The position numbers and the translations under genes were made by a program. Shown one piece after another: positions 1 through 12,895 of a stretch of DNA of 12,895 nucleotides (within the stretch, counting starts at the first letter, position 1; every line of letters starts with the position of its first letter). Source of the stretch: Promethearchaeota archaeon. GTDB lineage: Archaea; Asgardarchaeota; Lokiarchaeia; Sigyniarchaeales; SOKP01. Under the pieces are notes generated by a model. It had not been told where the DNA came from. It made no database searches and worked only from the letters and a program-made list of their open reading frames with translations. The stretch is from positions 1 through 12,895 of the forward strand of contig JBHLME010000126.1 of NCBI GenBank assembly GCA_048938445.1, written 5' to 3'.

Positions 1-5
1 CATAA

Positions 6-13
6 TTTATATA
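6..13 (+). promoter_or_regulatory. Candidate archaeal TATA box for 67..1302
   Basis: TTTATATA lies about 55 nt upstream of the ATG. The AT-rich background makes chance matches likely. Confidence 0.35.
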
Positions 14-66
14 TATTTTAAAGGAATGCTAACATAATTACTTATTAAAACCAATGGGAATATAAA

Positions 67-1302
67 ATGAATATTAAGGATATAGAAGCAATTAGTAAAA
101 AGTACGCAAACTTGTTAATAAAAGAGGGATACACCCAGATTGAGGAACTACTAAATTTAACAAAAAGCCAAATGTCAAAGTTAGCAAAAAAAACTGGAAT
201 CCCAGTAAGAATGATAGATACATTTCAAGAACTAGCTGATTTAATGAGGATAGACGGTGTAGGAGACAAAATTGCGAACGTGTTAAATAAAATTGGGATT
301 GATTCAGTCAAAGAGTTTGCTCAAAGAAATGCTAAGAATACATTAGACAAAATGAAAGAATTTAAAGATGAATTAGCTGGAAAATTGCCAACTTTGAATG
401 ATGTAAAAGATTGGATTCAACAGGCAACAGCACTATCATTAGGAACAACACCAAAAAAGAAAACAACACCAAAGAAAACAACACCGAAGAAGGAACCATC
501 AAAAAGGCCTGAAGGAGATTATGGACCTGACTATTGGAATAATAAATATCAAAAGGCACCTATTATATATACGGGGAGGGCTTTAAGAGGACAGGATTAT
601 TATAAACAAATTGATGCAGATGTTAAGTCATTCATTAAAAAGAATGATGCTATTCTCTTTCATGTCATTGATCAAGCACAATTAAAAAAAGGAACATTTA
701 ATAAAACAGCATTAGCTATACAAGATTTTGTAAACGGTTTCCTTAAATATAAATTTGATGAAGAAACATCAGACTGTCCTGAATTTTGGCAGTTTCCTTT
801 TGAATCAATTCAATCTGGGATTGGAGATTGTGAGGATGGAGCGATCTTAATCGCTAGTTTACTAATCAACGCTGGAATTCCATCTTGGAGAGTTAAGGTC
901 GCTGGAGGAGGTGTTTTACCAGATCCTGTGTTTGCTCCATCTGAAACTGAATTGGGAGGTCATGCTTGGTGTATATATTTAGCTGATAGGTCTGATTCTA
1001 AACGTGGATTAGAATGGGTTATCCTAGACTGGTGTTATGCACAGGATCCAGATGTGCCAATTGAGGAAAAACCATTAGCAAAAGACGGAGGCCAACAGGG
1101 AGGGTATAAAGAAACATGGTTTACATTTAACGATGAATATAGTTGGGCCTTGGATTTAACTCAAATTCCAACAGGAAGAATAAGTAATAATAGAACGACA
1201 AAAAAAGATGAAGTTTTAATAAAAATGGAAGATCTAATGAGAAACTTCGCAAAAGAACAAATGTTAAAAGTATTCGAAAAATACGGAATTAAAATAGACT
1301 AA
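67..1302 (+). CDS. DUF4332-like HhH domain fused to a transglutaminase-like (BTLCP/LapG-type) cysteine protease domain
   Basis: The N-terminal ~120 aa show the DUF4332 pattern (LAKKTGIP...LADLMRIDGVG...LNKIGIDSVKEFAQRN...LPTL..VKDWIQQA). The C-terminal part has FWQFPFE...GDCEDGAIL (Cys255), GHAW (His299) and ILDW (Asp321), a papain-like/transglutaminase triad. No signal peptide is visible. Confidence 0.85.
   Translation: MNIKDIEAISKKYANLLIKEGYTQIEELLNLTKSQMSKLAKKTGIPVRMIDTFQELADLMRIDGVGDKIANVLNKIGIDSVKEFAQRNAKNTLDKMKEFKDELAGKLPTLNDVKDWIQQATALSLGTTPKKKTTPKKTTPKKEPSKRPEGDYGPDYWNNKYQKAPIIYTGRALRGQDYYKQIDADVKSFIKKNDAILFHVIDQAQLKKGTFNKTALAIQDFVNGFLKYKFDEETSDCPEFWQFPFESIQSGIGDCEDGAILIASLLINAGIPSWRVKVAGGGVLPDPVFAPSETELGGHAWCIYLADRSDSKRGLEWVILDWCYAQDPDVPIEEKPLAKDGGQQGGYKETWFTFNDEYSWALDLTQIPTGRISNNRTTKKDEVLIKMEDLMRNFAKEQMLKVFEKYGIKID
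445..492 (+). repeat. Three imperfect coding tandem repeats (ACAACACCRAARAAR) encoding TTPKKK-TTPKK-TTPKK
   Basis: Read directly: acaacaccaaaaaagaaa acaacaccaaagaaa acaacaccgaagaag, in frame within 67..1302. Confidence 0.9.
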
Positions 1303-1306
1303 TATT

Positions 1307-1358
1307 ATTTCAAATTTCTGTTTTTACTTTTTTATGTCGTTTGTTTTTTTTATTTTTT
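1307..1358 (+). terminator. Oligo-T tract, probable archaeal-type terminator
   Basis: Several T4-T8 runs immediately follow the TAA at 1302. Confidence 0.45.
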
Positions 1359-1460
1359 AAAAAAATATTATTAAATAAGATAAGTTTCTTTTAATTCTTT
1401 GATTAGAAAAAACTTGTTTGAAAAACATTAGATAATTATTAGGATTAATTTTTTCTTTAA

Positions 1461-2957
1461 TTGAATAAGATATTTTGCAAGAATAAGAATATTAAGAAGA
1501 TGCAAACTAAAAATACTACTTTTTATCCCAAACGGTGTACATTCTTAGTCGATACTAATAATCTAATAGATTTTCAGATGATTGAGAGAATTATCGAAAA
1601 ATTTGATAATAAAAGTATTGAAAGATTAAATGAAGTTATAAATGGGATAAAATTCTATGTGGGTGGAAATCATTGGCATGTTAATGAAAAAGGCTATATA
1701 AAATATCCCGCATTCGAATTTAATTTTAATAATGGAACTCTTCTAATTTTTCTTTATAAAATCTTTAATTTGGGTTTTCTCAGATGGAGAAATATGTTAT
1801 ATGGGGCACTAAGAAGATTTATTTGGGAGTCTTTTTGTCATGAAGTTATCATGAGTTTAGTACATATAATAAAACTTAATTTAAATTTAGCCGAAATTGC
1901 AAAAGAATATTATCTTAATGATGAAAATGAATTTACCCAAAAATTTATAAGCGAATTATTTAATTATGAAGAGAATTTTCCCCTAAGAGTTAATTTCATC
2001 GCAATAAACAATAGTCTTTGGCATGAATCAATACCAAAATTAGGATTCTTAGATTTATTATATAGGAGGAAAATGAATCAATTAAAAAATACTATAAATT
2101 CCCGAAATTCAAATAGATTTCTAAAAATCAAGTTTTTCAATGAATTACGAAAAATTAAGTTGAATTATGATTATGAATACAATTTTAGTGAATTAATAAA
2201 TTATTGTATTCATAACAATCACTTTGAAACATTATTTAGATATAATTGGGAATTTTACGATAAATTTCGTAGAGAATTCTATTATAAAGCTAAAAGGTTA
2301 ATCTTAAAATTTTTTAAGCAATATGAGATTAACCATAGGTTAAAAGAATATAAAGATTCAGCCAATCGAACGCATTATTTTCTTACTCATCAAACATTTG
2401 AGCGAGTAAAAAGTACATGTTTACAGATATGTATAGCAAAGTTAAAGAATCAAATCTTAGAAGAATATGAATCATTTAAAAATTTTTATTCTTTGTGTCC
2501 TATTTGTCAAAAAGAGAATCTTAACCATATTAATTGCGAGAAATTTTATTTTTACTCTAAATTTACCTTTTTTAAAAATGTTTTGCTTGAAAAAATGAAT
2601 AAGGTTAATCATTTAGAAGAGTTAAACGATGATGAATATTATTTTGGCATACCCTGTGAAGATTGTTATAAAATTGTTCGTAATATTCAAGGAAAGTTCT
2701 CTGATTTAGATCAAATCCAAAAATTTATTTTAAATTATAGAATCTGCCCGATTTGTGGTACAAAGAATCACGATAATTATCTTCTAGAATTCTATTACGA
2801 TAATTCTAAAATTGATTTGAGAAATAATTTAATCCAATTTATGGATTTTAGCAGAAGAATGAAAAATATTAAAGTAAATTTCGGAATACCCTGCTGTACT
2901 TGCTTTACTAAGATTTTTGGAGAGATTCCAGAATATAATCTAAATCATTTTTTTTAA
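1461..2957 (+). CDS. Uncharacterised protein with two tandem C-terminal CxxC-x(45-49)-CxxC (GIPC) putative Zn-binding modules
   Basis: 498-aa uninterrupted ORF in very AT-rich DNA. It contains CPIC...FGIPCEDC and CPIC...FGIPCCTC. The true start may be the ATG at 1500 (MQTKN) rather than the TTG at 1461. Confidence 0.8.
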   Translation: MNKIFCKNKNIKKMQTKNTTFYPKRCTFLVDTNNLIDFQMIERIIEKFDNKSIERLNEVINGIKFYVGGNHWHVNEKGYIKYPAFEFNFNNGTLLIFLYKIFNLGFLRWRNMLYGALRRFIWESFCHEVIMSLVHIIKLNLNLAEIAKEYYLNDENEFTQKFISELFNYEENFPLRVNFIAINNSLWHESIPKLGFLDLLYRRKMNQLKNTINSRNSNRFLKIKFFNELRKIKLNYDYEYNFSELINYCIHNNHFETLFRYNWEFYDKFRREFYYKAKRLILKFFKQYEINHRLKEYKDSANRTHYFLTHQTFERVKSTCLQICIAKLKNQILEEYESFKNFYSLCPICQKENLNHINCEKFYFYSKFTFFKNVLLEKMNKVNHLEELNDDEYYFGIPCEDCYKIVRNIQGKFSDLDQIQKFILNYRICPICGTKNHDNYLLEFYYDNSKIDLRNNLIQFMDFSRRMKNIKVNFGIPCCTCFTKIFGEIPEYNLNHFF

Positions 2958-2988
2958 TTTAATTTCTAAGAAAAGAAGGAGAATAAAT

Positions 2989-4371
2989 TTATTTAGAATT
3001 TTCATTCTTCAAAATTGTCGCTATAGACATTCCGAATCCAACACACATGGCACTAATTGCAAATTCTTTCCCTGTTTTTTCTAATTGGAGTAAGTTTGTT
3101 CCAATTAATCTGCATCCTGTCATTCCTGTCGGGTGACCAAGTGCAATAGCTCCACCCCAAGGATTAAATCTTGGATCGTTCCAATCTATCCCTAATTCTT
3201 TACAACAAGTCCATACAACAGGACTAAAAGCTTCGTTGATTTCGATAAAAGCCATATCATCAAATGTTAAGTTAGCACGCTTTAAAGCTTCAGGCATAGC
3301 TTTAACTGGACCATCTAACATTATCACAGGATCACTACCGATGATAGCAAAATTTAAAATGGTAGCTCTAGGTTTAAAACCTAATTCCTCAGCTAATTCT
3401 CTCGTCATCCAGATTTGGGCTCCAGCACCATCACTTGTAGGACAACTGTTTCCAGCCGTTAAAAAGGCTTGACTTTTACGCCCTACTATTGTTTTTAATT
3501 TTGATAATACTTCCATGTTGGTAGTTGGGCGAGGTCCCTCGTCTCGAGATGTTAATACAGAGAGCCTTTCATCTTGAGCAACATTATTATTTTCATCAAG
3601 CATAGGTTTTCCGTTTTCGTCAATTTTTGGGCACCAAATAGGTTCGATTTCTTTAGCTCTATCATCCCATGTGCTACAGGCTTTTTGATGAGAAAGTAAT
3701 GAAATCTGATCTAATTCTTGTTTAAATTCATCTCGATATTCACCTTTAAATTCATTCATTGATATCCCTTTATGTTTACTATAATAATGAACACCTAAAA
3801 CATGAGCAGAATTAATTTGTCCAGATAGAGAGGTTTTTAATTCTTTTAATTTAGCAGCAACTTCAGGATTAGTTAATATCTTTTTATTTGGTGCAATCAT
3901 TATGGGTTTTCCTAAGTTTTCATCAAATACATATGCATCCGCCATAATGGGATATTTGTTTTGAATTTCGATACCACCACATATAACAGCATCGTGAGTA
4001 CCGCAAGCGATAGCTTGCCAGGCTGAGAGAATTGCCTGAGTACCACTGGCACAATGTCGATTTATTGACATACCTGGAACACTCACAGGTAAATGTGCAC
4101 TTAAAGCAGTATTTCTACCAATATCCATTGCACATTCACCTATCTGACTATTACAGGAAACAATCGAATCGCCAATAATACTTTTATCAAAATTATTTCG
4201 TTTTAAAAGCGTTTCGTAGCAATGTATAATCAAATCATCGCCCCGATGTCGTACGATGGTCCCTCTTCTCTTTCCAATAGGCGTCCTAACATAGTCAATT
4301 AAAACAGGTTCGCGCTTTGGATCCTTAAAATACTTCTCATATATACTTACAGGTTCAACCATAAAATACAC
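2989..4371 (-). CDS. Thiolase (acetyl-CoA C-acyltransferase), catalytically intact
   Basis: Motifs RTPIGK, INRHCASG (nucleophile Cys107), DEGPR, TAGNSCPTSDGA, EINEAF, NPWGGAIALGHP and MCVGFG are present. The start is probably the ATG at 4362 (MVEP). Confidence 0.95.
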   Translation of the reverse strand: MYFMVEPVSIYEKYFKDPKREPVLIDYVRTPIGKRRGTIVRHRGDDLIIHCYETLLKRNNFDKSIIGDSIVSCNSQIGECAMDIGRNTALSAHLPVSVPGMSINRHCASGTQAILSAWQAIACGTHDAVICGGIEIQNKYPIMADAYVFDENLGKPIMIAPNKKILTNPEVAAKLKELKTSLSGQINSAHVLGVHYYSKHKGISMNEFKGEYRDEFKQELDQISLLSHQKACSTWDDRAKEIEPIWCPKIDENGKPMLDENNNVAQDERLSVLTSRDEGPRPTTNMEVLSKLKTIVGRKSQAFLTAGNSCPTSDGAGAQIWMTRELAEELGFKPRATILNFAIIGSDPVIMLDGPVKAMPEALKRANLTFDDMAFIEINEAFSPVVWTCCKELGIDWNDPRFNPWGGAIALGHPTGMTGCRLIGTNLLQLEKTGKEFAISAMCVGFGMSIATILKNENSK

Positions 4372-4560
4372 TTCTTATAAATTTTTGATAAGTAACTAGA
4401 TTTTATCTAAGAATTTTAAATATTAGATTTAAAATAATAATTTTGCTTATAATATTAAAGTTAATTGACTTAAATGTAATGAATCATTCAGCTTTACAAA
4501 ACAATTATTAACATAAACAAATATTCAAATGATTAAATTTAGTAAAATGATGATAATTAG

Positions 4561-4575
4561 GAAAAAATATAAATA
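4561..4575 (+). promoter_or_regulatory. Candidate BRE + TATA for the PAP2 gene
   Basis: GAAAAAA is directly followed by TATAAATA, about 65 nt before the start. Confidence 0.4.
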
Positions 4576-4641
4576 TCTGAGGTTCTACTAAATTAAAGTC
4601 TAAGAATAATATTATTTCGCATAACCAAAATCGAATTAAAC

Positions 4642-5280
4642 TTGTCAGATAAAAATTCTTCAATGGGAATAATTCAAAGAATCAACGATTGGGATCAAAA
4701 AACTTTTTTGAAGTTCTATAAGAATAAATTTCTAAAAGGTAAAAAAATTATTTTATTTGCCAAAGTATTCTCATTCTTTGCCAATATGCAATTTTGGGGT
4801 GTATTATGGCTCATTTGGGCAATTTATGGGTATATTACTAAAGATTATTATCTTTTTGTATTATTTACTGGCGGATTTATTCAAAGCATAATCCTTCATA
4901 TAATTATTCGATATAAAATTGTTAAAAGACACCGACCTTATATAAAATTACAAGAGAAAGGAGTTGAACAACGAGATGAATTAATTAGAGAACATAAATC
5001 ATTCCCATCCGGACATGTAACCTTCTTTTTGTTTTTTGGGATAATTTTTGCTTTTTTCTTCCAAAATTGGATAATTTTATTAATTTTTATCTTATTAGAT
5101 ATAATCGTGGCAATAACTCGTCTGATATTAGGAGCTCATTTTCCCACTGATGTACTATTTGGATTCTTATTTGGTATTGGTTATGGACTTTTATATCTAG
5201 GTTTAACATGTATTTTTTGGGTGTATTTTTTCTATTGGTTAGGTGAAACTTTTTCACCAATAATTCATTTTTGGTTATAA
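4642..5280 (+). CDS. PAP2-family integral membrane (lipid) phosphatase
   Basis: Motifs R-x5-RHRP (C1), SFPSGH (C2) and TRLILGAHFPTDV (C3) plus several hydrophobic TM segments. An alternative start is the ATG at 4663. Confidence 0.93.
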   Translation: MSDKNSSMGIIQRINDWDQKTFLKFYKNKFLKGKKIILFAKVFSFFANMQFWGVLWLIWAIYGYITKDYYLFVLFTGGFIQSIILHIIIRYKIVKRHRPYIKLQEKGVEQRDELIREHKSFPSGHVTFFLFFGIIFAFFFQNWIILLIFILLDIIVAITRLILGAHFPTDVLFGFLFGIGYGLLYLGLTCIFWVYFFYWLGETFSPIIHFWL

Positions 5281-5820
5281 TTAATGATACCATTCGGTAA
5301 ATTCTTCTAAAGCCTTTCTTTCTCTCGAACCTTCTCTTTGTAATTTAATTGAATCTTTATCTATTTCACCGATAGCTATTACTCCCATTAACTCATATTT
5401 TTTTGGATTTAATTTGAATATATCGTTAACTTTTTCTTTTTGGTTTAATATTGATCCTATCCAAACGCCACCTAGATTCAGAGCGTGAACTCCTAGAAGA
5501 ATATTTTGCATAAATGCTCCTATTGATTGAATATCTTTAACTCTATCATATACCTTTTCTAAATCCAAAAATACTACAAAATTTACATAAGCATTTTCTA
5601 TTATGTCGCCATTGTGAGTTAGTTGAGCTAGCATTTTTTTAACTGCGGGATGAATTACCACATTAACACGCCATGCTTGATTATTAAGACCCGAAGGACT
5701 CCAGCGTCCACATTCCAAGATTTCTAATATTATTTCTTTTTGAATTTTACTTTCAACAAATTTCCTAATACTTCTTCTTGATTTAATAAATTCTAAAAAT
5801 TTTTTTGAATCACTTTCCAT
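5281..5820 (-). CDS. Nitroreductase family FMN-dependent oxidoreductase
   Basis: Motifs IKSRRSIRKF, WSPSGLNNQAW, QNILLGVHALNLGGVWIG, IAIG and C-terminal RKALEE. Confidence 0.95.
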   Translation of the reverse strand: MESDSKKFLEFIKSRRSIRKFVESKIQKEIILEILECGRWSPSGLNNQAWRVNVVIHPAVKKMLAQLTHNGDIIENAYVNFVVFLDLEKVYDRVKDIQSIGAFMQNILLGVHALNLGGVWIGSILNQKEKVNDIFKLNPKKYELMGVIAIGEIDKDSIKLQREGSRERKALEEFTEWYH

Positions 5821-5842
5821 AAATTTAATTAGTTTCTTATGA

Positions 5843-5850
5843 ATTTATAA
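5843..5850 (-). promoter_or_regulatory. Candidate TATA box for a leaderless nitroreductase transcript
   Basis: TTATAAAT on the minus strand ends about 23 nt before the ATG at 5820, and no SD motif is present. This is the spacing expected for an archaeal leaderless mRNA. Confidence 0.4.
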
Positions 5851-6026
5851 TTTTAATCATTTCTTATCTAATGAAATCATCAAAACTAAAGTGTTAAAAA
5901 GCAGAATAATTTTTATAACGAATAATGTTTAATAGTAATTATATATTATAAAAAGTTGAAAAAACAAATCCAAGTTGTTTGAAAGAAATATAATTGTTTA
6001 GATGATGTTTAATTAATATATAAATT

Positions 6027-6032
6027 GGAGGT
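6027..6032 (+). promoter_or_regulatory. Shine-Dalgarno site for 6041..6268
   Basis: GGAGGT lies 8 nt upstream of the ATG. Confidence 0.7.
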
Positions 6033-6040
6033 AATAACTA

Positions 6041-6268
6041 ATGGGAAAAATTTTTCATAGATTTTTATTAATATTAGGAATATTTATCGCTTTTATGTGT
6101 ACGATTACTTTTTTTATGAATGGTGGTATAAGAAAATGGGATGAACTAATTTGTATAAATCTTATTAGATATACATTATGTACATCTTTTCTGATATTTA
6201 TGATAACCTGGATTGCTTCAATGGTTATTATCTTTTTTGCGATTTTAATGATTAAAGGTGAGTTATAG
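6041..6268 (+). CDS. Small hypothetical membrane protein (75 aa, two predicted TM helices)
   Basis: Strong SD, ATG start, two long hydrophobic segments around a short polar loop (NGGIRKWDE). It occupies an otherwise empty 650-nt gap. Confidence 0.65.
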   Translation: MGKIFHRFLLILGIFIAFMCTITFFMNGGIRKWDELICINLIRYTLCTSFLIFMITWIASMVIIFFAILMIKGEL

Positions 6269-6468
6269 TAGTACTGAAAATAATTTTTAAAAATTAATAT
6301 TTAATCATTTCAAAATTCTTTTCCAATATCTAATAGTATTGAATAAATAATTAAAATTGATAACTACGTCTGAAAAGAGTACAAATAGTTGCATTAAAAT
6401 TAGAATAAATAACAAATATAAAAATAAAATAATTTAGATATGAAAAGTAAAAATTAGTTTATTATATA

Positions 6469-7002
6469 TTAGTCTAAATCATCCGCATCATCTTCTATTT
6501 TATCGTAATATTCGATGTCCATAAGACCTCCTGTCCTTTCGTCTCTCCAATGAACTTTAACTGGCATATTTATATAGGTTCCCTTGACATCAATATTCGG
6601 AGCTAATTCAGCTACAGAACAAGTATCTGCGCCATCATGCTGAACTAAAACCATTGGTTTTTCTTCCGTTTCACCCGTATCAGGATTCTTCAAATAAGCA
6701 ATTCCATAAGTAGACACATTTGCAGTTTCTCGAATATCTACCCATCTATCAGGTTTTAATAAGCATTCCCCGCAAACTTGTCTAGGAGGGAAAAAGATTC
6801 TATTACATCCAGAACATCGATTTCCAACAAGTTTTTTGTCTTTTAACTTCTTTAAGAAAGGTTGCATATGAGTAATATTAAATCTAAATTTATAACTGGA
6901 TAAATACCAAGCACCAGGCATCGTACGTGTTCTGATATAGTCTTTTTTAATATATTCTAATGCTTTTCTTTCTGTCCTTTGCGACAACTTTTTTTCTGAC
7001 AT
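6469..7002 (-). CDS. DUF35 family Zn-ribbon/OB-fold protein (ChsH2-C/Rv3521-like thiolase-fold partner)
   Basis: KLVGNRCSGC...FFPPRQVCGEC Zn ribbon, then an OB fold ending MPVKVHWRDERTG. SD GGAGGT at 7011-7016. Confidence 0.92.
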   Translation of the reverse strand: MSEKKLSQRTERKALEYIKKDYIRTRTMPGAWYLSSYKFRFNITHMQPFLKKLKDKKLVGNRCSGCNRIFFPPRQVCGECLLKPDRWVDIRETANVSTYGIAYLKNPDTGETEEKPMVLVQHDGADTCSVAELAPNIDVKGTYINMPVKVHWRDERTGGLMDIEYYDKIEDDADDLD

Positions 7003-7008
7003 TTTATT

Positions 7009-8256
7009 TTACCTCCATTTTCTTTTTGGTTCATCCGAAAATACCATAAGTGTACATAAATTAAGTGAACCACCCCATCCATGCCCAATGGATGTATGTA
7101 CAGTCTTAGGGACCTGATTGCTTGCTTTTCCCATTATTTGAAGTGCTGCTACTGCGGGTCTTTCCATTGCTGATGCTCCTATTGCATTGGTAGCATTTAC
7201 ACCTCCAGAACAATTTATTGGTAATTCTCCATTAAAATCTGTTACGCCTGTTTTATACATTTGTGGAGCTGTAGTTTCCTCGAATAGGCCGAGCTTTTCA
7301 CTCCACATTAAGGTCTGATTTGGGAAAGGACCATATAATTCAGCATAATCGATTTCCTTTCTTGGAAAAGAAATACCAGCTTGATTATAAGCCAATTCTG
7401 ATGATCGCATGGCACCTAACTGAGTTGAAGGATCAAGTTGCGCTGAACCGCCTCCATCATACCCTAGAATCGCTGTTTCATTTGCAACACTAGCTACTCC
7501 ATTTACGTAAACAGGAATGTCTGCCCATTCTTTGGCTTTTTCTTCAGTAGTAAATAACATCGCACAAGCTCCATCAGATGCGGGACAAACCATCCCATAA
7601 CGCAATGGATATTGAATATATGGAGTATCAAGCACGTCTTCAATTGTAAGATTTGGCATTTTTAAGTGAGCCCACCATGTTTTTGCAGCATTTCTTCTTT
7701 CTTGCACTACAACTCTTGCTAAATCTTCTTCAGTTGTTCTTGTTTTGCTCAAATAAGTAGTTGCTTGATATGCTGCCACTCCAATTGCCGCACCTGCGGA
7801 TAATAAGCGTGTAAGCTGCTCATAAGTTATTCCTAAAGTATTAAGGATCGATATTTCACCTAATGCAACACTTGCAAGACCTAAACTCGTGTCACCTTGA
7901 CTTTGCTGTTCAAAAGCGATAGCTAACACAGTATCAATACCAGGTATTCCAGCGGCAATATTATAGTATCCACATATAGCGACCGACCCACCAGTAGTCC
8001 CTCCCGTTGTTATTCGCATTAAAGGCTTATTTCTTGCCCCCATCCAATCTGTCATCCATAATTCAGGAATATTAGATCCTTCAAAAGCAGGCATATTTCC
8101 GTTTGCAAAAGCATCAATATCATCCATACTAACACTTGGAACTTTCTTCATACAATCTTGAATTGCTTCGTTAATTAATTCTGGCATACTAACATCAGAG
8201 CGTTTTGATGCATGTTCTGAAAAACCTGCACTTATACAACATACTTGTCGTCCCAT
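7009..8256 (-). CDS. SCP-x-type thiolase-like protein, Ltp3-like (lacks canonical thiolase catalytic residues; putative retro-aldolase subunit)
   Basis: KRSDVSMPELINEAI, FEG...PELWM...GARNKPLMRITTGGTTGG, AFEQQS, AHL, CPASDGACA, AELYGPF, NAIGAS, QIMGKA and GHGWGG match motifs I recall from mycobacterial Ltp3 (Rv3523). There is no nucleophilic Cys and no GHP His. Confidence 0.85.
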   Translation of the reverse strand: MGRQVCCISAGFSEHASKRSDVSMPELINEAIQDCMKKVPSVSMDDIDAFANGNMPAFEGSNIPELWMTDWMGARNKPLMRITTGGTTGGSVAICGYYNIAAGIPGIDTVLAIAFEQQSQGDTSLGLASVALGEISILNTLGITYEQLTRLLSAGAAIGVAAYQATTYLSKTRTTEEDLARVVVQERRNAAKTWWAHLKMPNLTIEDVLDTPYIQYPLRYGMVCPASDGACAMLFTTEEKAKEWADIPVYVNGVASVANETAILGYDGGGSAQLDPSTQLGAMRSSELAYNQAGISFPRKEIDYAELYGPFPNQTLMWSEKLGLFEETTAPQMYKTGVTDFNGELPINCSGGVNATNAIGASAMERPAVAALQIMGKASNQVPKTVHTSIGHGWGGSLNLCTLMVFSDEPKRKWR

Positions 8257-8258
8257 TT

Positions 8259-9401
8259 TTAATTATCTCCCTCCAATACATATAAAATATTATTTTGAGC
8301 ACACATGCCAATTTGCCCTGAAGCTAAAGCCTTTTTTGCGCCATTAACTTGATAACCATTTGCTTCGCCTCTAATTTGTTTAACAGCTTCAATAATTCTA
8401 ATTAATCCTGTAGCACATTGAGGATTACCACCAAGAGCTCCACCAGACGGATTTATTGGAAATTCACCGTCAATTTCAGAGTTCAAGCTTGGTCCTTTAC
8501 CTTTCTCTGCCAGGCCTAAAGCTTCTGCTAAAATTAATTCTTCGTGTGCATAAACTTCAAATAATTCGGCCACATCAATTTCACTTTTAGGATTTTTAAT
8601 ACCTGCTATTTCAAACGCTTTCTTACCAGCAACTTCCATTGATTTAATTGTAGATAAATCTCTATCGCCCAAATAATAAGTATCTTGAGACCATCCTACG
8701 CCAGTAATCCAAACAGGTTTATCCGTGATTTTTAGGGCTTGTTGTTCTGGAGCTAGCAATAAAGCAGCAACACCATCACAAGGTTGAGCTACCATTAATT
8801 CTGTGACAGGATCGGCATAACTCTCAGAATTTAATATATCTTGAGGAGTTAAATTAGGATTTTGTGCTTCAGGTAACGCTAAAGGATTCTTAGCTGCATT
8901 TCTCCTATTTTTAACTGCTATTTTAGCGATATCTTCAGCACTTATACCATATTTTTCCATGTAAGCTCTCATTTGAAATCCGCCAGCTGTTATATCATTT
9001 ACTAATGCTGTTGGTCGTTCCCACGTAGGGTCTGTTTCATATAATTTCGTGGCATGATAGGGAAAACAAGAAGCCATACTTCCGCCCCACACCACAGCTA
9101 ATTTGTGATTGCCCGATAAAATACGCATTAATCCATATAATACAGCATGAGCACCATCCATCTCTACTTTACTCTCATCTGCTAAATAACCACCACCTAT
9201 TTCAACAGTAAAGCAATTTGAAATTGTACGCCCATCATAATAATCATTAGTACAAGAGATTACTGTTGTTATATCCTTTTTTTTTAAGCCAGCTTTGTCT
9301 AACGCTCCTCTTACAGCCTCAAAAATCATTTCATAACGGCCATAATTCGCATTTGCTGATAATTTAACTTGATTATAACCAACTATTCCAACTTTTTCCA
9401 A
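8259..9401 (-). CDS. SCP-x-type thiolase-like protein, Ltp4-like (lacks canonical thiolase catalytic residues)
   Basis: DYYDGRTIS, ESKVEMDGA (Asp at the nucleophile Cys position), TDP, NPSGGALGGNP (Asn replaces His) and terminal QNN...VLEG match motifs I recall from mycobacterial Ltp4 (Rv3522). TTG start with SD GAGGTGA at 9411-9417. Confidence 0.85.
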   Translation of the reverse strand: MEKVGIVGYNQVKLSANANYGRYEMIFEAVRGALDKAGLKKKDITTVISCTNDYYDGRTISNCFTVEIGGGYLADESKVEMDGAHAVLYGLMRILSGNHKLAVVWGGSMASCFPYHATKLYETDPTWERPTALVNDITAGGFQMRAYMEKYGISAEDIAKIAVKNRRNAAKNPLALPEAQNPNLTPQDILNSESYADPVTELMVAQPCDGVAALLLAPEQQALKITDKPVWITGVGWSQDTYYLGDRDLSTIKSMEVAGKKAFEIAGIKNPKSEIDVAELFEVYAHEELILAEALGLAEKGKGPSLNSEIDGEFPINPSGGALGGNPQCATGLIRIIEAVKQIRGEANGYQVNGAKKALASGQIGMCAQNNILYVLEGDN

Positions 9402-9410
9402 TTAATCTAT

Positions 9411-9417
9411 TCACCTC
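9411..9417 (-). promoter_or_regulatory. Archaeal-type Shine-Dalgarno GAGGTGA overlapping the upstream stop codon
   Basis: The minus strand reads TGAGGTGA-N9-TTG. The first TGA is the stop of 9416..9877. Confidence 0.75.
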
Positions 9418-9877
9418 ACAATTTTACAAACCCTTTAATATCTGAAGGTTCTCCCTTTGTTTTTTCAGCCCATTCTATTTTAACCTTCATCCCTGTTTTA
9501 ACCTCTCCAGGTCCCATATCTAATATTTTGTATACCATTCCTGTATTACTTCCATCAATATTTACCATCCCGATTATCTGCCCTTTTTTCACCTTTCTTG
9601 AACCTCTATCAGTGACTTTATAAGGTGTAATTGTATAATTCACCAATGTGCCGGTATCAGGTAAATCAACCCAATTTTGGTCTAACGGAATAGTCACATT
9701 GCATTTTCCACATATTTTTCTAGGTGGAACAAAGACATCACTACATTTGGTGCATTTATTTCCAATTATTTTTTTTTGTTCTAAACTATCGTAGAATTTA
9801 TCCAAGTATTGCCCAACCCAAAAGCTAAATTCAGCACGTACCATCCCTTTATTTGTTATAATTACTTTTTCGGTCAT
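9416..9877 (-). CDS. DUF35 family Zn-ribbon/OB-fold protein (ChsH2-C/Rv3521-like)
   Basis: KIIGNKCTKC...VFVPPRKICGKC, then GTLVNYT and an OB fold ending GMKVKIEW...G...DIKGF. Confidence 0.93.
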   Translation of the reverse strand: MTEKVIITNKGMVRAEFSFWVGQYLDKFYDSLEQKKIIGNKCTKCSDVFVPPRKICGKCNVTIPLDQNWVDLPDTGTLVNYTITPYKVTDRGSRKVKKGQIIGMVNIDGSNTGMVYKILDMGPGEVKTGMKVKIEWAEKTKGEPSDIKGFVKL

Positions 9878-9963
9878 TTTCTTTTATTTATAATTTTTGA
9901 TTTTAATATTCTTTTTAGGACTTTTAATTAAATTAACAATTAATGATAAATTTGTCGCAAGGT

Positions 9964-9971
9964 TATTTATA
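9964..9971 (-). promoter_or_regulatory. Candidate TATA box for the DUF35-ltp4-ltp3-DUF35 operon
   Basis: TATAAATA on the minus strand is preceded by AAAATG. It lies about 87 nt from the start in an AT-rich context. Confidence 0.3.
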
Positions 9972-10135
9972 CATTTTAATTCAATTTAAAACTCTATTTT
10001 TTAACCTTAAGCCTTCAATTGTTATATTTGGATACTATATTTTTTAAAATATTAGTGAAATTAACTTTAATCATAGAATTTAGAAGAAAAATTATCAAAA
10101 ATAGTTAAAATCTTATTATTCTTTTTTATCCAAGT

Positions 10136-12523
10136 TTATGACCAGATCTCTTTACCATTTTGAAAGCTTACGGTAAATATCTTCATTGGATCATCAGTGA
10201 TCTCAACATTTGGAATAATTTTCCCTGATACTATATTAAATTCAGCAGGTACATATAGAATAAAATCCAAGGGCTTTATCTTATTTCTTCTTACATCGGA
10301 AATATATTTGCTAATTGCTCTAGGATTAGGATGACTGCGTAATTCGCCGGCATATTTTCCATCATTTTGAGTCAAATCAGCATAAAATAAAGCATTGCTG
10401 TAGAGGCAGGGATAAGTGATTGAAAGAGGAAACATTGTGCCATAAATTGCGCTGCCTGTATGAACATACCGAGTAAGTTGCAGGCTTGGCCACTTTCCCT
10501 TACCATACATACGGCCAGGAATGAAAATATCTGGAAATTCCATATCTAATTGAGAAATTGCTAAAGCAATGTAACAGACAAAATTGAGATTATGCTCCTT
10601 CATGAACTCATAATTGCCCGAATTGTTTTGTTTATTGCTATACCGATAACTAAAACTCAGCAATTTAAACGCTGCTTCTAAATAACCCAATTTTTCTCTA
10701 CCCATTAAAGATACATAATCTGCAAAAGCATGAAGAACAACACTCGTTGCTCCATTTTTACCAAATTCTTCGTATGAGACTATACCATCATTATCCTCAT
10801 CAAATTTTTCAAAAAATTCTTCCCTCAATTTAGTACCCTCTAGTTTGTCGATTACCGCTAAATAATTGATAGCAGTCCGTTGCAAATCCCAAGGTACCTT
10901 AAACATATCATAAAAAAGGGTTTTAGTTATTAAATCTGAAAACCTTTCGTTTTTTATTGTACCTAAGTGCCCTTTAAGTGAAATTATTGGTGAATCGGTT
11001 AAAAGATCATAACCCATAACATGATAATCCATTTGTCCCAATCCTCTCTTTTGTGCGCTTTCAAAAGTAATATCTCGAGCTAATGGGGAATCATAACCTT
11101 CTTTTGATATGATATCTTGTCCATTTATAGTTGGGATGGGCACTTTCTGAGGGAAGCCACCTGCAGTTCCGCCCTCCAGATTAACTTCAAGAGATTCTTT
11201 TAAAGAAACGTTGCTAAACATGTACCGAGCACACAAAAGATCAGTTGCAACAGGATCTAAACCTCCAAAAACCATGCCTTCAGCTGTTCTTACGCCACTT
11301 ATACCTTGATGATCAACATTTATTGCCTCTATACCGTCAACTATATGAAGCATCATAATATCCAAATTATCTACTGCTTTGATAATATCAATCATCGTTG
11401 CTATAATTCCTCCGGTCTTTTTTAATATGAAATTACCTTCAGTGTCTCTTTTAGGCAGGGAACTGTCATGTTCCACTTCAGGTATCCAGATTTGGTGTGG
11501 GATACCTGCTTTCATGCCAACAACGGTAGTACCTTGAGGTCTAGCATAATCCCATTTTTTATCTCCTTCGCTGGCATAATGCATTGGATAAAGTCCAATT
11601 CCTAAATTTTTTATGATATTCGTGAAAAGAGCAATAGCATGAACTTTAAATTTAGGAACGTTTATTAAAATACATCCGGGATAAGCTTTCATATCTTCAG
11701 AATCATCACTATAACCGCCGGTAATAACTTTATGTAATACGATAGACTTATAATTTACCCCATCTGGTACCTTACATTTCCTACCCTTATTTGGATCATC
11801 GTATATCCGGTTCAGATCATATACCATCAATTTATCAGAAACAAGTCCCGGAGGTATATAAGTACCGTTGATACTTTCCTCGTAACCTCTGAAGGGATCG
11901 TCACTTTCCCCTTCTTTTAAAGATTCGGAAAGATATTGTCGAACAAAATAAAATCCCCACCCTCCTATAAAATATCCGGATTTTCCCTCGATGATAGCTT
12001 CCGTTGTAATTTCTCTCCCATCAGGATTTATTTTTGAACAAATACTTGCCGAAGTTTTAAATACAGTTGCTGCCTCACCAAGTGCCATCTGATAATAACT
12101 TATTTCGCCCTTATCATGGAACCATCTCATTAAAGCAGCGATAAATGCCCAATCCGTACAAGTGTCGCGCCCTTGAGAATATCCATGAGTCTGCGGATCA
12201 ATACATATAGGACTAACGAGATTAGGTTTAAATAAAAGTTTCTGACCTTTTTCCAATTTCTCTTTGATCTGAACAAAAAATGAAGTATCTTTCTCTAAGG
12301 GAGTTAGTGCGTAATCTAGGCTATTTAATGTATAATCAATTTTCTCTTTTATTTTATTCCAGCTTTCCTGATCTGAATCATTAATATATTTTTGTAATAA
12401 ATTATCAATACCCTTATATGATTTTTTGACGTCCATTCTCACAACTCCTATGGGAGATCCAGAAGAGTCGTTCACTTGTTTTCCTAAGGGTGAATTAAAA
12501 TTTATCGTTTTTTGACTATTCAT
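10136..12523 (-). CDS. Large DUF362 domain-containing protein with a C-terminal extension carrying an EF-hand-like loop
   Basis: DUF362-type motifs LLFKPNLV, GEA, LINVPKFKVH, IKNLGIG, IVDGIEA and DPVATD. DEDNDGIVSYEEF lies in the C-terminal third. Confidence 0.85.
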   Translation of the reverse strand: MNSQKTINFNSPLGKQVNDSSGSPIGVVRMDVKKSYKGIDNLLQKYINDSDQESWNKIKEKIDYTLNSLDYALTPLEKDTSFFVQIKEKLEKGQKLLFKPNLVSPICIDPQTHGYSQGRDTCTDWAFIAALMRWFHDKGEISYYQMALGEAATVFKTSASICSKINPDGREITTEAIIEGKSGYFIGGWGFYFVRQYLSESLKEGESDDPFRGYEESINGTYIPPGLVSDKLMVYDLNRIYDDPNKGRKCKVPDGVNYKSIVLHKVITGGYSDDSEDMKAYPGCILINVPKFKVHAIALFTNIIKNLGIGLYPMHYASEGDKKWDYARPQGTTVVGMKAGIPHQIWIPEVEHDSSLPKRDTEGNFILKKTGGIIATMIDIIKAVDNLDIMMLHIVDGIEAINVDHQGISGVRTAEGMVFGGLDPVATDLLCARYMFSNVSLKESLEVNLEGGTAGGFPQKVPIPTINGQDIISKEGYDSPLARDITFESAQKRGLGQMDYHVMGYDLLTDSPIISLKGHLGTIKNERFSDLITKTLFYDMFKVPWDLQRTAINYLAVIDKLEGTKLREEFFEKFDEDNDGIVSYEEFGKNGATSVVLHAFADYVSLMGREKLGYLEAAFKLLSFSYRYSNKQNNSGNYEFMKEHNLNFVCYIALAISQLDMEFPDIFIPGRMYGKGKWPSLQLTRYVHTGSAIYGTMFPLSITYPCLYSNALFYADLTQNDGKYAGELRSHPNPRAISKYISDVRRNKIKPLDFILYVPAEFNIVSGKIIPNVEITDDPMKIFTVSFQNGKEIWS

Positions 12524-12583
12524 ATTTTAAGGATTCCTTCTGTTTTAATAAGTGACAGATATGTAAATATTTGATCTTATTAG

Positions 12584-12591
12584 TATATAAA
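12584..12591 (-). promoter_or_regulatory. Candidate TATA box for the DUF362 gene
   Basis: TTTATATA on the minus strand lies about 60 nt upstream of the ATG. A weak SD-like GAAGGA is at 12535-12540. Confidence 0.35.
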
Positions 12592-12851
12592 TATTTATCA
12601 TTTCTAGTGAATGGATTTAAAAATAGAGTAATATTTTATTGAAAAAGTTAAGAAAAAAGAAATAAAAGGATGCACACAGGAACATACGCCCTTTTTCCTA
12701 ATAAATTACTGGTGTTTCGCACTATGCTTATCAATCCGAGAGTGTAATGAACTAAAAAAAATAATATACTGATATCATTTTTTTTAAAATAGGAAAAATC
12801 GTATGATAAAGTATAAAACTAAGAAAATTTTTTGAAAAAAAAAGAAAATTT

Positions 12852-12895
12852 TCATAATACCTCAATATTACTCTTGTTATCTTCTACATCATATA
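12852..12895 (-). CDS. Possible 3' end of a minus-strand gene truncated by the window edge (...YDVEDNKSNIEVL*)
   Basis: An open frame runs from the edge to a TGA at 12854-12852 and is followed by a long T tract on the minus strand. It is too short to confirm. Confidence 0.4.
   Translation of the reverse strand, partial: YDVEDNKSNIEVL

Follow-up and report, generated by a model that had tools for sequence, protein, structure and literature searches.

Ltp2 and Sal are aldolases that combine a thiolase fold with a DUF35 partner. According to PMC12329534, a Gly stands in for the thiolase Cys in both, with Tyr294 as base, Tyr344 as acid, and His296 in Ltp2, and Tyr302 and Cys304 in Sal. A further system, Ltp3-Ltp4, is described in PMC6678751 as a heteromeric aldol-lyase whose product is a carboxylate in need of reactivation; this source and PMC6593523 state that in the sitosterol route C28 must be carboxylated before hydration and aldol cleavage can follow. 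Here we compare with these systems a four-gene cassette from a Promethearchaeota archaeon (GenBank assembly GCA_048938445.1, contig JBHLME010000126.1, positions 1 to 12,895; this whole stretch of 12,895 nucleotides is called the window). The original prediction had read the cassette as an Ltp3/Ltp4/DUF35-type retro-aldolase operon that would imply use of sterols or methyl-branched isoprenoid lipids. We find that the cassette is real, conserved, and misannotated. Judged from its sequence, it probably, though far from certainly, encodes a heteromeric retro-aldolase with putative activity on a non-sterol 3-hydroxyacyl-coenzyme A (CoA).

A conserved cassette that lacks the thiolase catalytic residues

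The cassette consists of four co-oriented open reading frames (ORFs), all on the minus strand, with intergenic gaps of 14, 2, and 6 nt, exactly as predicted (Table 1). Both small proteins matched Pfam zf-ChsH2/OB_ChsH2_C (DUF35), and both large proteins, of 380 and 415 amino acids (aa), matched Thiolase_C_1/Thiolase_N and are SCP2-type thiolase folds. The small proteins are homologous to each other (E value of 6e−17), and each has two CxxC motifs, at residues 42 and 56 in DUF35a and 63 and 77 in DUF35b, whose four Cys are invariant in 87 and 88 aligned orthologue rows, respectively.

Catalytic columns were read from a 168-row alignment with 12 Cys-thiolases as the reference; the accompanying FastTree tree excludes seven representatives whose matches were discontinuous, along with every partial one. 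The nucleophile column is Cys in all 12 Cys-thiolases, Gly83 in the 380-aa chain (VEMDG, residues 79 to 83), and Gly86 in the 415-aa chain (ITTGG, 82 to 86). Both chains have Asn in the GHP-His column, Asn326 in the 380-aa chain (GGNP, 324 to 327) and Asn357 in the 415-aa chain (ATNA, 355 to 358). Neither large subunit has the nucleophilic Cys, the HDxF His/Cys, or the GHP His, which agrees with the losses of Cys and GHP His noted in the original prediction. That these proteins are nonetheless ordinary thiolases is scarcely credible: the fold and the source annotations favor it, but the residues are missing from both subunits, and the window has its own classical thiolase (2989-4371) that scores above the TIGR01930 cut-off of 240.55 bits, versus 28 and 19 bits for the two large cassette chains. 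Among 120 homologues listed for the 380-aa protein, 29 carry source names, 14 as “acetyl-CoA C-acetyltransferase” and 15 as “thiolase family protein,” so that the mislabeling foreseen for these genes is found in practice.

The cassette is widespread among related archaea. A scan of GTDB contigs confirmed 93 relatives, and the 80 listed, taken here as the orthologous loci, share 70 to 92% identity with the window; 54 are titled Promethearchaeota/-ia and most others Asgard or “uncultured archaeon,” in line with the Asgard-like host that had been proposed. Among orthologues, the cassette proteins have a median identity of 81 to 82%. In 75 of the 80 loci, all four genes are present with unchanged order and strand, which argues that the arrangement is not due to chance. 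Four of the five exceptions are cut by contig ends; the fifth, L066, is truncated as well and carries three extra ORFs between the Ltp3-like gene and DUF35b (2473-5694).

Matches at an E value of 1e−40 were found in 72 of 301 genomes of the phylum, and a close orthologue (at least 67% identity) in 51 of 68 other genomes from the window's own family and in 3 of the 19 from another family. Several Asgard families carry paralogous cassettes of about 40% identity, likewise made up of Ltp4-like, Ltp3-like, and DUF35 genes, with up to six matches per genome. In a sister clade from metagenome contigs (45 to 68% GC), the one clade from which gene contexts of the wider family were sampled, 24 of 50 loci show exactly this order of four genes, and the others are short or cut. 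Loci L101, L056, L016, and L100 are islands of two or three distinct Cys-less Ltp3/Ltp4-like cassettes, including the PRK06065/PRK06066 type, together with a BKACE gene; they also contain a trio of thiolase-like, DUF35, and SCP2-like genes that keeps HDAF and GHA and lacks the Cys. Another SCP2-type thiolase-like gene with a DUF35 gene (G000:C186:9153-10385) apparently lacks the nucleophilic Cys and keeps HDAF and GHP.

Within bin G000 (96.5% complete and 8.2% contaminated), the window corresponds to contig C62. The C62 proteins are closer to genus g7 (76 to 92% identity) than to the bin's own genus (58 to 62%), and one further C62 protein shows the same pattern (76 to 88% to g7 genomes, 58 to 62% to the own genus), with a second copy in the bin at 60%. 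Second copies of the genes flanking the cassette lie on contigs C255 and C66, the latter syntenic, and the cassette is absent there, as it is from both other sampled genomes of the own genus. Contig C62 thus looks misbinned from a neighboring genus, so absences from the bin carry less weight than counts made across the family, in which 10 g7 genomes are included.

Table 1. Cassette genes of the window and an acetone-carboxylase-like operon of the same bin (window positions unless a contig is named)
Feature	Position	Strand	Evidence
DUF35a, zinc-ribbon/OB-fold (ChsH2-type) partner, 153 aa	9416..9877	-	Pfam PF01796 31.3 and PF12172 23.1 bits, above cut-off
Ltp4-like thiolase-fold subunit, 380 aa, TTG start	8259..9401	-	NCBIfam matches below cut-off, tree, AF2
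Ltp3-like thiolase-fold subunit, 415 aa	7009..8256	-	PRK08313 343 bits (cut-off 514), motif table, AF2/Foldseek
DUF35b, second zinc-ribbon/OB-fold partner, 177 aa	6469..7002	-	Pfam PF12172 29.8 bits, above cut-off
Acetone-carboxylase-like operon (beta, alpha, gamma), two bin copies	G000:C28:9740-14643 (L188); C156:1909-6807 (L189)		577 bits to 5M45

Heterodimer model and putative active site

AlphaFold2 (AF2) models of the 415-aa and 380-aa proteins had pLDDT values of 89.5 and 93.5. In Foldseek searches, the best matches of the 415-aa model were archaeal and SCP2-type thiolases (TM score of 0.80 to 0.85), and the aldolases 6OK1 (Ltp2) and 9MYR (Sal) followed at about 0.75, all at identities of 25% or less; no PDB sequence match near the 35% level was found. 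Modeled together, the two chains gave a heterodimer score of 0.95, while the best of three controls scored 0.00; among solved complexes, 116 of 157 attain the mark used for this score, compared with 2 of 215 mismatched pairs. The runs share at least 92% of contacts, with a partner pLDDT of at least 93, and the modeled interface takes in the invariant residues 52-81 of the 380-aa subunit. The contact face is the one that we would expect of a thiolase dimer. The model supports the predicted heteromer. By analogy with the alpha2beta2 Ltp2-DUF35 and Sal-DUF35 structures, we infer that each half of the heterodimer would bear its own DUF35 protein. Natural fusions occur in the family: two DUF35 domains lie in one chain in actinobacteria and at locus L102, and the PRK06065-type paralogue P0210 has a C-terminal extension with two zinc-ribbon-like repeats (read by eye).

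The two large subunits are conserved in different ways. Gly occupies the nucleophile column in 48 of 49 Ltp3-like rows, as in Ltp2, and Asn the GHP-His column in all 49. The 415-aa chain keeps Tyr308 (YGPF), which sequence alignment places in the column of Ltp2 Tyr294 and Sal Tyr302, while the 380-aa chain has Phe281 there; Tyr is found in this column in 39 of 49 Ltp3-like rows versus 4 of 40 Ltp4-like rows. Among orthologues, 41% of columns are invariant in the 415-aa chain versus 25% in the 380-aa chain, whose own-site motifs vary while the stretch 52-83, with its N-terminal interface loops, is fixed. This pattern suggests that the 415-aa protein is the probable catalytic subunit and that the 380-aa protein is probably structural, with a degenerate site, so that one working site in the Ltp3-like chain would be completed by the Ltp4-like chain.

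We propose that the four genes encode one heteromeric enzyme in which Tyr308 of the 415-aa subunit would deprotonate the 3-hydroxyl group of a 3-hydroxyacyl-CoA, and the C2-C3 bond would then break by retro-aldol cleavage to give acetyl- or propionyl-CoA and a carbonyl fragment. Candidate proton donors, chosen by conservation, are Cys224, His197, a water on Asn357, and Asp53 or Asp82 of the partner.

Another Cys-independent reaction on a CoA ester (decarboxylation, dehydration, or acyl transfer), or a binding or scaffold role for other beta-oxidation enzymes, would fit the absence of the acid residue of known aldolases and the many divergent clades of this superfamily. Precedents are given in PMC12329534, which mentions weak malonyl-CoA decarboxylase activity in a thiolase-like protein, and in bioRxiv 2024.07.05.601840, where DUF35 proteins scaffold multi-enzyme assemblies. 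Throughout the Ltp3-like clade, however, the Tyr base column is conserved, as are Asn357 and the glycine loop, and the one member studied by genetics acts at a step that PMC6678751 reads as aldol cleavage. We consider such a reaction or role unlikely.

Neighboring genes and possible substrates

Neighbors were counted over distances of up to 8 kb at the 80 orthologous loci, 41 of which span at least 14 kb. The most frequent were acyl-CoA dehydrogenase (25 loci), ligase (15), BKACE (14), crotonase (12), and SCP2-like genes (11), followed by CrtI-type oxidoreductase (10), NMO/FabK (7), and SDR genes (7). The substrate of the retro-aldolase would be a non-sterol acyl-CoA made by the neighboring ligase, dehydrogenase, and crotonase. 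No MaoC, KstD, P450, or carboxyltransferase gene was found among these neighbors, and an adjacent MaoC partner was rejected on this count. The DUF35 genes adjoin the thiolase-fold pair and are not fused to MaoC in any of the 80 loci, and six MaoC matches lie elsewhere in the bin.

Of these neighbors, we regard BKACE as the most informative. BKACE enzymes convert a beta-keto acid and acetyl-CoA into an acyl-CoA and acetoacetate. BKACE genes are present in 72 of 81 family genomes, lie within 6 kb of a paralogous cassette of about 40% identity in at least 21 of 28 genomes by the coordinates listed, and adjoin the cassettes of two other Asgard families. All 27 such BKACEs keep HxH and RxGxED, which we take to be catalytic motifs. 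The substrate class of the BKACE family is confirmed in the NetSyn preprint. The carbonyl fragment would probably be handed to BKACE as a beta-keto acid, either as released or once a methyl ketone has been carboxylated; BKACE would reactivate such a carboxylate product without ATP. Without a biotin enzyme, the carboxyl group would have to come from the substrate or from another carboxylase. One candidate is the acetone-carboxylase-like operon of the bin (Table 1), whose alpha-type gene is found in 42 of 81 family genomes. By cassette content, it is present in 25 of 45 genomes with an orthologous cassette, 2 of 4 with only a paralogue, and 0 of 12 with neither. This link is a lead only, since the genomes are kin and 20 of the 45 cassette genomes lack the alpha gene; for the latter reason, a methyl-ketone route was rejected as a general rule.

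A speculative and rather doubtful extension of the proposal is that Loki-type archaea degrade beta-methyl-branched acyl chains by a biotin-free, thiolase-free route. Ligase, acyl-CoA dehydrogenase, and crotonase would supply a tertiary 3-hydroxyacyl-CoA, which the heteromeric aldolase would cleave to acetyl-CoA and a methyl ketone; an acetone-carboxylase-like enzyme would turn the ketone into a beta-keto acid, and BKACE would yield acyl-CoA and acetoacetate. With the same low likelihood, the route might be fed by lipids of archaeal necromass, through their isoprenoid or phytanyl chains, or by leucine, through isovaleryl-CoA. A tertiary alcohol and an isoprenoid substrate are each plausible in themselves. 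In the open-access literature searched, which does not cover subscription papers, we found no such route, nothing relevant on anaerobic phytol cleavage by retro-aldol, and no paper on an archaeal Ltp3/Ltp4-like cassette. PMC8027215 reports expanded, expressed beta-oxidation genes and involvement in lignin and humic-acid degradation for Loki-3, which may or may not correspond to the window's family.

Aldolases are reversible. The cassette might thus join an acyl-CoA to a ketone or keto acid to form a 3-hydroxyacyl-CoA for lipid or isoprenoid building, as suggested by the very high conservation, the FabK/NMO-family neighbors, and the synthetic role of archaeal thiolase/DUF35 complexes in bioRxiv 2024.07.05.601840. 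However, the neighbors are mostly catabolic (ligase, acyl-CoA dehydrogenase, BKACE), and the cassette is absent from 17 of the 68 genomes sampled in the family and from most other Asgard families, a patchy distribution that disfavors a core role in membrane lipids. We regard the synthetic direction as quite improbable.

Several observations weigh against a retro-aldolase that feeds BKACE. The acid Tyr344 and His296 of Ltp2 and Cys304 of Sal are not kept; the 415-aa chain has Asn357 and Pro310 in these columns, so that half of the known catalytic pair is missing. The heterodimer score may reflect resemblance to solved thiolase homodimers. The window has no BKACE gene. Such a gene adjoins the cassette in no more than 14 of the 80 orthologous loci and in 1 of 50 loci from metagenomes, and 7 of 12 genomes without the cassette have one too; BKACE was rejected as a universal partner on the metagenome count. 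The compared genomes and loci are kin and not independent. Finally, the aldolase label of Ltp3/Ltp4 rests on Rhodococcus genetics as relayed in citing papers, and no purified activity or solved structure of this type was found in the literature and PDB searched.

The cassette's neighbors in the window are a DUF362 protein, a nitroreductase, PAP2, and the classical thiolase, a 460-aa protein with long insertions and a second copy on contig C66. The DUF362 protein (10136-12523, 795 aa, with an EF-hand-like stretch) lies upstream on the same strand and is not a conserved neighbor. A 498-aa ORF (1461-2957) with several CxxC in its C-terminal third has no Pfam or NCBIfam match and also adjoins the cassette in loci L001 and L057. 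The protein at 67-1302, kept in 46 of 81 family genomes, combines DUF4332/helix-hairpin-helix, a Lys/Thr/Pro-rich linker, and a transglutaminase-like Cys protease-type domain (weak LapG match).

Relation to Ltp3/Ltp4, sterols, and other known systems

The cassette was compared with four actinobacterial tandem-DUF35/ltp4/ltp3 loci and one Nocardia Ltp2 (608 bits to 6OK1). Actinobacterial controls scored well against NCBIfam (750 and 596 bits for Nocardia Ltp3 and Ltp4, 694 and 495 bits for those of Nonomuraea) and passed PRK08313/PRK07937 where scanned, whereas the window proteins missed both curated cut-offs (343 versus 514 bits for the 415-aa protein with PRK08313, 191 versus 419 bits for the 380-aa protein with PRK07937). 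The 380-aa chain scored higher, though again below cut-off, with PRK06065 (220 bits) and PRK06066 (210 bits). Identity to the four actinobacterial pairs is 34 to 37% for the 415-aa and 30 to 32% for the 380-aa protein.

In trees, the family divides into Ltp3-like and Ltp4-like superclades that contain the 415-aa and 380-aa proteins, respectively. Actinobacterial Ltp3/Ltp4 form one tight subclade among many, and the sisters of the window proteins are other Asgard and metagenome cassettes. An exclusive clade of Loki and actinobacterial sequences was rejected for both subunits by approximately unbiased (AU) tests (P = 0.025 with 49 rows, P = 0.014 with 48 rows), which have moderate weight because they used LG+G4 quick trees under a site-homogeneous model. 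The locus does belong to the broad Ltp3-like/Ltp4-like superclade, with an adjacent Cys-less pair, one chain in each subclade, and two DUF35 domains. We conclude that the cassette probably works like Ltp3/Ltp4 and shares an ancestral heteromer with it, yet lies outside those curated families: it is a divergent variant of the Ltp3/Ltp4 module. Of the predicted operon identity, the Ltp3-like and Ltp4-like chains, the two DUF35 proteins, the heteromer, and the probable retro-aldolase stand, and membership in actinobacterial Ltp3/Ltp4 does not.

The predicted use of sterols is not supported either. A true functional Ltp3/Ltp4 by which the archaeon strips C24-branched sterol side chains would be in keeping with PRK08313 as the best NCBIfam match of the 415-aa protein, the identity to the actinobacterial pairs and the shared DUF35-Ltp4-Ltp3 order, the NMO/FabK-family genes that flank actinobacterial and several Asgard cassettes alike, and one bin SDR that is 42 to 46% identical to two Nocardia steroid-cluster SDRs; KstD would be needless if only the side chain were used. 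Apart from the missed cut-offs and the rejected clade, however, the KstD model found no match in 81 family genomes (15 candidates scored per genome), and a biotin carboxyltransferase domain was found in only 6 of 81, none of them the bin. The neighbors of the cassette include no sterol-ring genes. In BLAST of 82 Nocardia steroid-region ORFs, an incomplete set whose filter missed some genes (there was no IpdA query, for example), the bin matched nothing beyond generic beta-oxidation, SDR, and CoA-transferase ORFs, with no match to the KstD, P450, HsaC, or Mce-type ORFs. The only full-length FAD_binding_2 match of the bin is L-aspartate oxidase. Sterol catabolism was therefore rejected as being without support, and side chain stripping is highly improbable. 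In a Streptomyces clavuligerus linear plasmid (locus L091), tandem-DUF35/ltp4/ltp3, acyl-CoA synthetase, and NMO genes adjoin a terpene synthase, with no annotated sterol-ring genes within the 21 kb shown.

These results bear on how Asgard metabolism is read. bioRxiv 2024.07.05.601840 counts 3.8 ketothiolase/DUF35 pairs per Asgard genome and reads them as possible fatty-acid synthesis. A share of these pairs may be Cys-less and incapable of condensation or thiolysis; correcting this systematic misannotation bears on arguments about the lipid divide. The cassette places Ltp3/Ltp4 as one branch of a wide anaerobe family, offers a compact conserved four-gene unit for the Ltp3/Ltp4 mechanism, with one Tyr and no known acid, and gives a lead on the food of abundant sediment archaea; it is no demonstration of sterol use by an Asgard archaeon.

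Of the known systems, actinobacterial Ltp3-Ltp4 with tandem DUF35 (Rv3521-type) shares with the cassette two Cys-less thiolase-fold paralogues in the order Ltp4-Ltp3, two DUF35 domains, an Ltp4-like chain with a VEMD[GA] loop, and an Ltp3-like chain with YxPF and xN motifs. It differs in that one fused tandem DUF35 takes the place of two separate flanking genes. The 415-aa chain of the window has insertions, the proteins are 30 to 37% identical and not in sister clades, and the Asgard host family lacks a sterol cluster and KstD and mostly lacks carboxyltransferase. Ltp2-ChsH2(DUF35) (6OK1) and Sal-Shy(DUF35) (9MYR) share the SCP2-type fold, the Cys-to-Gly change, the Tyr column of the 415-aa chain, and a DUF35 partner, putative in the cassette. 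Both aldolases form homodimers, and their DUF35 is joined to a MaoC hydratase, whereas the cassette encodes a modeled heterodimer and free DUF35 proteins; their Tyr344/His296 or Cys304 have no counterpart here, and identity to Nocardia Ltp2 is 23 to 27%.

The archaeal PRK06065/PRK06066 “thiolase domain-containing” pairs are likewise Cys-less, Ltp3-like/Ltp4-like, and accompanied by two DUF35 domains, and they adjoin the cassette in L101, L016, and L056, but they form a separate clade for which the window proteins fall far below the cut-offs. Archaeal ketothiolase/DUF35 complexes, namely the thiolase-HMG-CoA synthase complex (6ET9) and the Sulfolobus fatty-acid synthase, share the fold (TM score of 0.80 to 0.85) and a DUF35 partner, again putative in the cassette; they keep the catalytic Cys and His that the window proteins have lost.

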